NCBI GenBank assembly: GCA_045616465.1
Contig: JAZLGW010000016.1
Location: 14,900-78,899, forward strand
DNA: 64,000 bases
Reading direction: 5' to 3'
Origin: Lachnospiraceae bacterium
Lineage (GTDB): Bacteria; Bacillota; Clostridia; Lachnospirales; Lachnospiraceae
In this document: positions 19,529-21,452 of the stretch, piece by piece
Position numbering within the stretch: the first letter of the stretch is position 1
How the letters are laid out: the number at the start of each line of letters is the position of its first letter
Position numbers and translations under genes: made by a program
Notes under the pieces: model-generated
What the model was told of the DNA's origin: nothing
What the model saw: the letters and a program-made list of their open reading frames with translations, nothing else
Databases searched by the model: none

Positions 19529-20476
19529 ATGCTAGCATTAGATAATTGCCCTAATGTTAAAATTGCTGAGATTTCTGCGGATAAGAAGTACGGTCGTTTT
19601 GTAATTTCACCCTTAGCACATGGCTATGGTATTACCTTAGGAAACGCACTTCGCCGCATTATGCTTGCATCAACCCCTGGTGCAGCAGTAAGTCAGGTAA
19701 AGATGGATGGCGTTCTTCATGAGTTCACCACCATTCCTGGCGTAAAAGAAGATGTAACCGAGATTATCTTAAACATCAAGAAACTTGCAATTTGTGATAA
19801 TAGTGGAAACACAGATCCTAAGAAGGGACACATTTCCTTTGAAGGTAACGGTGAAGTAACTGCGAAGGATATTCGTTTTGAAGATCCTGATGTAGTAATC
19901 ATCAACAAAGAGCAGACCATTGCAACTTTAAGCGGTGGTAAAGAATCTAGATTAGAGATGGATCTTGTTGTCACCAGTGGACGTGGTTATGCTTCTTCTG
20001 AAAAGAATAAGAAGAACGATTGTCCTATTGGTAGTATCGCAGTCGATTCTCTTTACACCCCTGTTACAAGGGTGAATATGACCGTTGAAGAGAAGGAAGA
20101 CAACACCGATGAACTTACACTTGATGTATATACCAACGGTGCACTTTCTCCTGATGTGGTTGTAGCATTGGCAGCAAAGGTATTTTCTGAGCATCTTTTC
20201 TTATTTGAGAATCTCTCTGAGACCGCAAATAAGGTAAAGAACGTTGCAGAGCAGGCGGAAGCTGATGCTCCTGCAAATGCCAATATTAGAATCGAGGAGT
20301 TGGATTTAAGTCAGCGTCCCTATAATGCATTAAAGCGTACTGGTATTGATACAATTGCGCAGCTTATGGAGATGACAGCAGCAGAGGTTAAGAAGATTCG
20401 TAACCTTGGTGCGTCCAGCTACGATGAGATTGTTGCGAAGTTGTTAGAGCATGGCTTCCATTTGAAGTCAGAATAG
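19529..20476 (+). CDS. rpoA: DNA-directed RNA polymerase alpha subunit, paralogue 1 (canonical N-terminal beta-contact motifs; degenerate TRVGQ..DKL block and altered CTD)
   Basis: 315 aa; [89 protein letters not shown] SD. Confidence 0.9.
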   Translation: [315 protein letters not shown]

Positions 20477-20495
20477 TTTCGGAAAGGCGTGTACT

Positions 20496-21452
20496 ATGAT
20501 AACATTCGAGTTTAATAGTCCTAACATTGAAATAGCAGATCTTTCCGAAGATAAGAAGTATGGACGCTTCGTAATTGAACCTTTGGAAAGAGGTTATGGA
20601 ATTACCATCGGTAAGGCTTTAAAGCGAGTTATGCAGGCATCTTTACCTGGAACCGCTATTTCTAGCGTAAGCATCGATGGCGCAGATGCTGGCAAGGATA
20701 CTGTTGCTGGCGTAAAGGAAATACTTCCTGAAATTCTTGTAAATTTCAAGAGTATTGCGATTGTGGATAATACGGAAGATGATGCTCCTAAGACTGCTAA
20801 GATTGCTTTCGAAGGAACTGGCGCAGTAAAGGCATCTGATATTGTTCTTCCTGAAGGACTTTCCGTAATGGATCCCGATCTTACCATCGCAACGATGGAA
20901 AAGAATGGCAAGTTTACAGCAACCCTTACAATCACAAAGGGAATTGGATATGTTCCTTCCGATGTAGTTGCAAAGGGACTTAAGGGAAGTGAGATTGCGT
21001 TAGATGCGATTTACACCCCCGTAGAGCGCGTGATTGATAAGGTAGAAGATACTCGTGTAGGTCAGGTTACGGACTACGATAAGCTTACCTTAGAGGTTTA
21101 TACAGATGGAACCGCTAGCGCTGATCAGGTTGTAAGCAATGCAGCAAAGTTATTAAACAGCCAGTTGGGTGCGTTCACCGCATTATCTGAGATTGCGCAG
21201 AGCGCTCAGGTTATGAATGATACCACCGACAGCCCGGTTGAGAAAGAATTAGATACCACCATCGAGGATCTTGAACTCTCCGTTCGTTCTCGTAACTGTC
21301 TTATGAGAGTTGGTATCAACACCATCGCTGATCTTTGCAAGAAGACGATGAAAGAACTTGGAGAGATTAAGAATTTTGGTGGTAAGTGCCTTGATGAAGT
21401 TGTAGAGAAACTTCATGAAAGAGGACTGGGACTTAGATCTAGCGAGGACTAA
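20496..21452 (+). CDS. rpoA: DNA-directed RNA polymerase alpha subunit, paralogue 2 (degenerate VLHEF block; canonical TRVGQ..DKL block and near-canonical CTD)
   Basis: 318 aa; [87 protein letters not shown]. Lies 19 nt after paralogue 1 with its own GAAAGG SD. Confidence 0.88.
   Translation: [318 protein letters not shown]

Follow-up and report, generated by a model that had tools for sequence, protein, structure and literature searches.

Tandem, divergent rpoA genes in the alpha operon of a Lachnospiraceae lineage as candidates for an oriented RNA polymerase alpha heterodimer

The tandem rpoA locus

The alpha operon in a 64,000-nucleotide stretch of a Lachnospiraceae genome (contig JAZLGW010000016.1 of assembly GCA_045616465.1, forward-strand positions 14,900 to 78,899; hereafter the window) contains two adjacent genes that encode alpha subunits for RNA polymerase. 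These genes, rpoA copy 1 and rpoA copy 2, lie in the order rpsM-rpsK-rpsD-copy 1-copy 2-rplQ-ecfA-ecfA'-ecfT. The textbook composition of bacterial RNA polymerase is alpha2-beta-beta'-omega, and its two alpha chains are identical. The evidence described here suggests that the two products have probably specialized into the two halves of an oriented heterodimer, in which copy 1 would face beta and copy 2 would face beta'.

The open reading frames (ORFs) of both genes were complete, on the same strand and 19 nt apart, and encode proteins of 315 and 318 residues, which confirmed the coordinates in the initial annotation of this DNA (Table 1). That annotation had also given each gene its own Shine-Dalgarno sequence (SD), and we identified a strong one for copy 1 (AAGGAGG) and a weaker one for copy 2 (GGAAAGG). 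AAGGAGG was present as well upstream of copy 1 in two other tandem loci described below (L001 and L003) and of the single rpoA gene of the nearest single-copy relative (locus L086). In L001 and L003 the two copies were separated by 23 and 24 nt, and the SDs in these spacers were of the AAAGG type. A terminator scan of the interval between copy 1 and copy 2 found none, and the first site on the same strand was at position 22200, after rplQ.

Both proteins were examined for the architecture of RpoA, a dimerization domain interrupted by an insert domain and followed by a linker and a C-terminal domain (CTD). PF01193, PF01000 and PF03118 all scored above cutoff in both copies and likewise in their orthologues. 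The scores against the rpoA equivalog model TIGR02027 were 314.5 bits for copy 1 and 283.4 bits for copy 2 (cutoff 227.8), and those against NF003519 were 326.6 and 303.1 bits (cutoff 277). The three Pfam domains and the TIGR02027 scores supported the annotation of both products as full-length alpha subunits. Their identity to one another was 42% over 313 columns by BLASTP, in keeping with the estimate made by eye that fewer than half of the residues are shared. AlphaFold2 modelled copy 1 and copy 2 with predicted local distance difference test (pLDDT) scores of 86.5 and 83.7, and the predicted fold of both is that of a normal alpha subunit. In Foldseek comparisons the N-terminal domain of the copy 1 model matched alpha of Clostridium thermocellum, Staphylococcus aureus, Bacillus subtilis and Clostridioides difficile with root-mean-square deviations of 1.3–2.3 Å and template modelling (TM) scores of 0.86–0.94. 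The closest solved structures identified by phmmer were those of Firmicute alpha subunits (6WVJ, 7L7B and 8I23; E 1e-78 to 4e-88).

The tandem pair was found in three lineages: the window, a second represented by loci L001, L002 and L006, and a third represented by L003–L005. L001 is contig JAKSRR010000012 of a horse-faeces metagenome-assembled genome (MAG) at NCBI, whose copy 1 and copy 2 proteins were 88% and 86% identical to those of the window; one Logan contig encodes the same two proteins as this MAG. In the third lineage, known from three Logan contigs, the corresponding values were 78% and 70%. The gene order and flanks, with rpsD upstream and rplQ downstream, were constant in the window, the MAG from NCBI and Logan contigs that came from four different runs, and the order from rpsM to rplQ in L001 was the same as in the window.

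A species scan, which took one genome per GTDB species and inspected 3 kb on either side of the best 80 loci, identified an orthologue of copy 2 in only one, the horse-faeces MAG. The other 79 Lachnospiraceae loci had a single rpoA gene, as did 12 metagenome loci. The nearest single-copy relative (protein P0004, in L086) was 64% identical to copy 1 and had one gene in the arrangement rpsD-rpoA-rplQ. A scan of metagenome contigs with a profile of copy 2 produced no additional orthologues, only matches of at most 54% identity, and none of the remaining loci retrieved had rpoA genes in tandem. Among the loci covered, the pair thus belonged to a small group of horse-gut-type Lachnospiraceae. The search of related genomes for tandem rpoA that the annotation had proposed yielded two further lineages, both with intact copies.

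Two other outcomes of the searches are recorded here. Three long RpoA entries (P0006, P0124 and P0031; 388–458 residues) were considered as fused or tandem pairs and rejected, their internal repeats being of the same gene and the entries chimeric assemblies. A scan with an N-terminal pattern found an RpoA at positions 1563–2462 of a 78-kb metagenome contig (L097) that was 33–36% identical to either copy and is probably from another phylum.

The ratio of non-synonymous to synonymous substitution rates (dN/dS), calculated between lineages by the NG86 method, was 0.07–0.15 for copy 1 and 0.075–0.13 for copy 2; this points to purifying selection on both, although the figures are rough because dS was about 1–2, near saturation. 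Relaxed selection or frameshifts in relatives, which the annotation had named as evidence that would count against its proposal, were thus not what we found. Both copies have nevertheless changed about 4–6 times faster than single-copy RpoA when the divergence of ribosomal protein S4 is held equal. Where the S4 proteins diverged by 3.1%, pairs of single-copy RpoA proteins differed by a median of 3.1% (range 0.9–6.5%), whereas the window and the horse-faeces MAG differed by 12.1% in copy 1 and 14.2% in copy 2. The same comparison with the third lineage gave 21% and 30%. Kimura distances to B. subtilis RpoA were 0.80–0.87 for copy 1 and 0.97–0.99 for copy 2, against a single-copy median of 0.47. 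The codon adaptation index, with the ribosomal protein genes of the window as reference, was 0.60 and 0.62 for the two genes, and 0.30–0.45 for ordinary genes. On these results both genes are functional and fast evolving, and both are probably well and similarly expressed.

Regional losses in the two copies

The two proteins were compared in a MAFFT alignment of the six paralogues of the three lineages, 79 single-copy Lachnospiraceae RpoA proteins and the RpoA proteins of E. coli and B. subtilis, the last two being 100% identical to PDB chains. Residues are given in E. coli numbering, and the assembly residues described as lost were all conserved to 95% or more among the 79 single-copy relatives. 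All the motif differences that the annotation had read by eye were reproduced in this alignment and were not misalignments.

Copy 1 retained DGVLHEF, GRGY and PIG in all three lineages. In each of them the segment T190–K200 was replaced by K/G-E/D, a four-residue gap and D-x-x-D-E/H, with the loss of R191, G193, Q194 and K200. R191, Q194 and K200 were 100% conserved in the 79 relatives, E. coli and B. subtilis; at position 200 the copy 1 orthologues had E, E and H, and copy 2 and all 79 single-copy relatives had K. In the AlphaFold2 models the strands of this hairpin were shorter in copy 1 (179–188/193–202) than in copy 2 (176–188/192–203). Copy 1 was also altered at E32/R33: R33, present in 79 of 79 single-copy relatives, was H in all three orthologues, and copy 2 retained ER.

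In copy 2 it was the hairpin that was intact in all three lineages. The DGVLHEF block was replaced by DGADAGK, five of the nine conserved columns in the segment 65–75 were altered, and GRGY was GIGY. All three lineages had N41K, R44K, I46V and L48Q in helix H1, R150I, H227Q and the loss of V64, H66, E67, F68 and PIG. The annotation had also noted LKRV in place of LRRI. This substitution is real (R44K and I46V), but its key residue, R45, is retained in both copies, as are K86, V180, R265, N268 and G296. Since R45 is present in both, any contribution of this residue to the asymmetry had been overstated.

The deviations were counted over the 172 columns that showed conservation of 95% or more among the single-copy proteins. 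Fixed deviations numbered 44 in each copy, with 15 common to both. An overall complementarity of the losses was considered and dropped, as the odds ratio over the 172 columns was 1.77 (p = 0.16) with no anticorrelation, and we therefore restrict the claim to region-specific tests. In the hairpin (186–210), 11 of 17 conserved columns were changed in copy 1 and none of 17 in copy 2 (p = 9e-5), and the interaction between region (hairpin versus domain 2) and copy had p = 1e-4. The annotation's complementary divergence consequently stands for this region and not for the conserved columns as a whole.

The same regional split was seen in the constraint on each copy across its three orthologues. In the hairpin 15 of 21 columns were invariant in copy 1 and 25 of 25 in copy 2 (p = 0.006), whereas in domain 2 (56–172) the numbers were 94 of 118 and 57 of 114 (p = 2e-6); within segment 61–77 they were 14 of 17 and 8 of 17. 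Pfam scores for the insert domain were 109–114 bits in copy 1 (112 in the window), 64–94 bits in copy 2 and 108–123 bits in single-copy relatives. Those for the dimerization domain were 69–73, 64–68 and 90–93 bits, respectively, and those for the CTD 63–72, 77–84 and 97–98 bits. That a region lost by one copy drifts in that copy and is frozen in its partner is a signature of duplication, degeneration and complementation.

The CTDs have also been remodelled. The DNA-contact set of the E. coli alpha CTD comprises R265, N268, C269, G296, K298 and S299, and copy 2 has every one of these but S299, which is Cys. Copy 1 had changes in 20 of 48 conserved CTD columns, and its C269A and K298S bear out the claim that it is altered at equivalents of the DNA-contact residues. 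Copy 2 had been described as near-canonical, a description that was too generous given changes in 16 of the 48 columns, including K271M, L295F, R297G and S299C; in addition, the Tyr conserved in LSVRS(Y)NCL is replaced by Arg. It is plausible on these sequences that the two CTDs would divide the work between them.

Table 1. Positions in the window of the rpoA pair, its altered and retained segments, and neighbouring features
Feature	Positions	Strand	Basis or remark
Shine-Dalgarno of copy 1, AAGGAGG	19515–19521	+	7 nt before ATG, read from the sequence
rpoA copy 1, proposed alpha-I (beta-side) protomer	19529–20476	+	ORF, Pfam, TIGR02027, orthologues, AlphaFold2
Copy 1 PLAHGYG, E32/R33 changed to A/S and H	19610–19630	+	Alignment
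Copy 1 start of domain 2 in its ancestral form, inside the segment 65–75 that beta protects in E. coli	19706–19744	+	Alignment
Copy 1 shortened, rewritten beta-hairpin (E. coli 186–200), EKE----DNTDE, four-residue deletion	20084–20128	+	Alignment
Copy 1 CTD core: V264Q, S266P, C269A, R/K297A, K298S, L300Y	20291–20431	+	Alignment
Copy 1–copy 2 spacer, 19 nt	20477–20495	+	Weak SD for copy 2, GGAAAGG, at 20481–20487
rpoA copy 2, proposed alpha-II (beta'-side) protomer	20496–21452	+	ORF, Pfam, TIGR02027, orthologues, AlphaFold2
Copy 2 helix H1: N41K, R44K, I46V, L48Q, R45 kept	20607–20651	+	Alignment
Copy 2 VLHEF block lost (V64A; H66, E67 and F68 replaced)	20676–20714	+	Alignment; variable among orthologues
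Copy 2 R150I, PIG lost, part of relaxed domain 2	20937–20993	+	Alignment
Copy 2 ancestral hairpin (E. coli 186–204)	21042–21098	+	Fully conserved among orthologues
Copy 2 CTD core: R265, N268, C269, G296, K298 kept; K271M, L295F, R297G, S299C	21261–21401	+	Alignment
Copy 2–rplQ spacer, about 200 nt	21453–21650		Candidate leader or regulatory RNA
GTAAGWCCRAAGNGC, two occurrences	21481–21495, 21541–21555	+
rplQ (L17), 178 residues	21651–22187
94-residue ORF between map and infA	16743–17027		No Pfam match
Aconitase-family gene after ecfT, 760 residues	24900–27182
Two ORFs of low GC content	27799–30667		May be an acquired island

The proposed oriented heterodimer and its alternatives

In E. coli, beta protects residues 30–55 and 65–75 of alpha, and R45A fully and L48A partially block the binding of the alpha dimer to beta; beta' protects 175–185 and 195–210, and K86A, V173A and insertions at 180 and 200 block its binding, while I46 is a residue of the dimer interface (PMC3294249). 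In alpha-II, residues 186–201 turn into the extended hairpin of the beta' groove (PMC13202282). Mapped to these determinants, copy 1 is without the beta' hairpin and K200 and retains L48, R45 and the 65–75 block, and copy 2 is without L48 and the 65–75 block and has a frozen hairpin. Neither copy has the complete set of near-universal assembly residues that one protein would require to occupy both positions. A single protein serving both positions could not have lost either determinant set, and each copy is without one of them.

Based on these observations, we consider it probable, although well short of certain, that a lineage-specific tandem duplication was followed by subfunctionalization into an oriented heterodimer, with copy 1 as alpha-I on beta and copy 2 as alpha-II on beta'. 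The duplication would have arisen within the alpha operon, in a single small lineage of Lachnospiraceae. Copy 1 would then have retained the ancestral helix H1 and the beta-facing domain 2 and shed the 186–200 beta' hairpin, and copy 2 would have held the hairpin invariant while it lost L48, VLHEF, R150 and PIG and its domain 2 drifted. Co-transcription with a spacer of 19–24 nt and separate ribosome-binding sites would favour a supply of approximately 1:1, and the resulting polymerase would carry two non-equivalent CTDs.

A number of points weigh against this reading, besides the lack of a global anticorrelation and the saturated dS already given. R45, the strongest beta determinant in E. coli, is present in both copies, and copy 1 alters the invariant E32/R33 inside the beta-protected segment 30–55, although these changes may belong to the hairpin/H1 groove instead. 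The annotation's proposal that the losses match the E. coli determinants thus holds in its direction (K200 and the hairpin in copy 1, L48 and 65–75 in copy 2) and fails at R45 and at E32/R33. At the dimer interface, F35, T38 and S50 are unchanged and the remaining published sites change conservatively (L39I/V, I46V and H227Q), so that nothing in these six sites forces heterodimerization. In B. subtilis either beta or beta' can be the first to be bound by alpha, and the R42A substitution is tolerated (PMC13202282); with assembly relaxed in this way the E. coli determinants may not fully apply to Firmicutes. The count of rpoA genes comes from the window, and a third could lie elsewhere in the genome; rpoB and rpoC were not found in the 64 kb, which had no ORF longer than 760 residues. 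We infer the formation of the heterodimer, its orientation and the roles of its CTDs from the pair, conservation, selection, rate and regional loss that were observed. Finally, the two copies were not sisters in the neighbour-joining tree, where copy 2 was left on a long basal branch, a result that bears on the origin of the pair.

With regard to that origin, an artefact in which assembly or binning had joined the rpoA genes of two strains or species in one contig is scarcely conceivable. All the sources are metagenome assemblies and chimeric RpoA entries such as P0006, P0124 and P0031 do exist in the database, but the pair recurs with the same order, short spacer and flanks in independent assemblies of three sequence-divergent lineages, and none of the scanned single-copy genomes contained a gene of the copy 2 type. 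Because several independent assemblies carry the same pair in the same order, with a 23–24 nt spacer, we conclude that it is not an artefact; these assemblies likewise uphold the annotation's statement that it is not an assembly duplication. A second possibility, compatible with any functional model, is that copy 2 is a xenologue from other Lachnospiraceae or Clostridia inserted beside the resident rpoA. The tree would favour this, as copy 1 and the P0004 group clustered without copy 2 in 87 of 100 bootstraps and the two copies were monophyletic in 4, and the best non-orthologous matches of copy 2 (P0125 and P0126) were unlike those of copy 1. On a branch as long as that of copy 2, however, long-branch attraction is expected, and copy 2 shared four of nine diagnostic states of the P0004 group, the sister group of copy 1, and one of the alternative. 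Copy 2 also had the two-residue N-terminal extension of the P0004 group (compared with MLAFDFDSPNIEV; most relatives begin MFDF), and five deviations from the family consensus were identical in both copies (V28I, S42A, S49A, N92D and V292I). These shared derived states, the extension and the identical deviations lead us to read the basal placement as long-branch attraction. Together with the head-to-tail arrangement inside the operon, they make a xenologous copy 2 distinctly unlikely and a tandem, in-lineage duplication of rpoA the likeliest origin on sequence grounds. The annotation's old tandem duplication is supported to this extent, notwithstanding the tree; the common start context TGTACTATG, which it had taken as a sign of duplication, was found in the window and in neither L001 nor L003.

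The functional alternatives turn on whether the pairing is fixed and on whether both proteins belong to the core enzyme. Homo- and heterodimers might coexist, giving polymerase species that differ mainly in their CTDs and serve regulatory diversification, an idea first put forward for Francisella. Such an arrangement would sit well with the unchanged F35, T38 and S50 and the conservative changes elsewhere at the interface, with R45, K86 and V180 in both copies, with strong remodelling of both CTDs (20 and 16 of 48 conserved columns) and with the relaxed assembly of B. subtilis alpha. We nevertheless regard it as unlikely, if worth serious attention. A homodimer must fill both positions, and one of copy 1 would be without R191, Q194 and K200 and one of copy 2 without L48, H66, E67 and R150; drift of the lost region in one copy and its freezing in the partner are expected only if one copy supplies each function, and in Francisella tests of the mixed-species idea went largely against it and favoured the heterodimer. 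The other alternative makes one copy the core alpha and the other a neofunctionalized or slowly decaying duplicate, such as an accessory factor for which the alpha fold or CTD serves a purpose outside the core enzyme. Rates several-fold above those of single-copy rpoA in both copies, the loss of some universal residues from each and some lowered Pfam domain scores are compatible with this. Against it, both genes are intact, full length and provided with an SD in three lineages, dN/dS was 0.07–0.15 for both, and codon adaptation was equal and raised; neither has the full ancestral determinant set, and so neither looks self-sufficient. Moreover, whichever copy were the spare one would have a hairpin or a domain 2 more conserved than its partner's. 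This explanation is accordingly very improbable, and the oriented heterodimer remains the reading that we prefer.

Neighbouring features and comparison with known alpha pairs

The spacer between copy 2 and rplQ contained GTAAGWCCRAAGNGC twice. Both occurrences lie in a block whose conservation extends to L001, L003 and, among single-copy loci, L086. In 28 of the 99 Lachnospiraceae loci retrieved, an exact GTAAGWCCRAAGNGC followed rpoA at a distance of 30–130 nt (chance expectation in the window, 0). The z-score of the minimum free energy of the spacer was only -1.3, and an Rfam scan of positions 16500–23000 returned no match. We consider the spacer a candidate leader of rplQ (L17) or regulatory RNA. 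In L17 itself the 97-position Pfam model extends over residues 17–178, and some 60 residues must accordingly be inserted within it; the protein has 155 residues in L001 and 179 in L086, and its length is thus a lineage feature that is not specific to the genome of the window.

Further upstream, the ORF of 94 residues between map and infA is matched in position and approximate size by ORFs of 93 residues in L001 and 84 in L086. The aconitase-family gene that follows ecfT is also found in L001 (15952–18234), and in L086 its place is taken by truA-rplM-rpsI (10367–12570). This change of synteny is common to the window and L001; none of the other tandem-rpoA loci extends far enough to cover the region. 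Downstream of the aconitase gene, two ORFs had a GC content of 0.32–0.36, compared with about 0.42 in their neighbours; one matched HipA_C weakly, below the threshold, a FecR domain was identified in the other, and the segment may be an acquired island.

The closest parallel to the rpoA pair is in Francisella, where the products of rpoA1 and rpoA2 were shown biochemically to form an alpha1/alpha2 heterodimer (Mukhamedyarov et al. 2011, PMC3294249); the PDB entry 6WMP of Francisella RNA polymerase lists a "subunit alpha 1". Both cases have a lineage-specific duplication, two full-length paralogues that are strongly accelerated and a proposed outcome of an oriented heterodimer with two different CTDs. 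The equivalent of K200 is lost only in the proposed beta binder (Thr in Francisella alpha1; E, E and H in copy 1), and the paralogues differ at position 173, one having Val and the other Leu, with Leu in Francisella alpha2 and in copy 2. Of the features of a Francisella-type pair, divergent full-length paralogues, found here in three lineages, acceleration under purifying selection and a one-sided loss of K200 are present.

There are also clear differences. R45 is kept in both copies here, whereas Francisella alpha2 has Gln at this position and copy 2 instead has L48Q, R44K and the loss of VLHEF. The four-residue hairpin deletion of copy 1 and the relaxed domain 2 of the other copy also set the present pair apart. 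The genes are in tandem in the alpha operon, whereas Francisella rpoA2 lies elsewhere, and the Francisella heterodimer is a biochemical result, whereas the present one is a proposal made from sequence. The organisms are Bacillota and not Gammaproteobacteria, and since the nearest relatives of both copies are Lachnospiraceae RpoA proteins, the pair originated independently of the Francisella duplication rather than by descent from it.

Francisella, which the annotation had cited as its precedent, is indeed the only bacterial heterodimeric alpha described in the papers searched, but it is not alone in having two rpoA genes. Chloroflexus spp. and Streptomyces avermitilis have two copies with no drastic substitutions in the dimerization or beta/beta' regions, Psychromonas and Leptospira have identical copies that are recent segmental duplicates, and the discovery of further cases has been predicted (PMC3294249). 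Unlike all of these duplicates, the copies described here combine 42% identity with reciprocal losses. Full-text literature searches identified no bacterial heterodimeric alpha beyond Francisella and nothing on Lachnospiraceae or a tandem pair.

Two further systems help to place the pair. Homodimeric Firmicute alpha, as in the structures from B. subtilis (6WVJ), C. difficile (7L7B) and C. thermocellum (8I23), has the same fold, length and operon position, but there a single gene product with all determinants fills both positions, whereas here each copy is without a subset. The engineered E. coli heterodimer of wild-type and R45A alpha resembles the proposed one in confining one protomer, which is unable to support beta binding, to the beta' side, with position-specific CTDs. 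It differs in being a laboratory-made single substitution, while the asymmetry proposed here would be natural, two-sided and independent of R45.

The pair can also be compared with archaeal Rpo3/Rpo11 and eukaryotic Rpb3/Rpb11 and AC40/AC19, in which a duplicated alpha-type scaffold is split between a partner on the beta side, where domain 2 is kept, and one on the beta' side, where it is dispensable. The beta'-side partner Rpo11/Rpb11 is wholly without domain 2, and it is exactly in domain 2 that copy 2 shows relaxed constraint. In contrast to Rpo3/Rpo11, in which the bacterial CTD is absent from both partners, however, copy 2 has a full insert domain (64–94 bits, confidently folded by AlphaFold2), both copies keep PF03118, and there are no partners of the Rpo10/Rpo12 type, so that the likeness is an analogy of process and not membership of that family. 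We tentatively speculate, as a possibility somewhat short of an even chance, that the pair is a naturally oriented alpha heterodimer of a Gram-positive gut bacterium, part-way to Rpo3/Rpo11, with domain 2 of copy 2 relaxing, the beta' hairpin of copy 1 discarded, and one DNA-binding-competent CTD and one CTD without K298 and C269 held at fixed positions. If this is true, the polymerase would have a built-in asymmetric device for promoter recognition and activator contact.

A practical consequence is that annotation pipelines name both genes rpoA, so that marker-gene phylogenies and single-copy completeness checks are distorted for these genomes. The pair could also serve as a natural tool, in that alpha surfaces specific to beta or to beta' may be readable from what each copy has kept, and what each CTD does at promoters could be separated without engineered R45A constructs. 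More generally, if this is a second case of independent origin, it would show that duplication repeatedly turns a homodimeric scaffold whose two positions are non-equivalent into a heterodimer. The reciprocal degeneration would be cleaner here, with the hairpin deleted from copy 1 and domain 2 drifting in copy 2, and would correspond to the step thought to have yielded the alpha-like pairs of archaea and eukaryotes.

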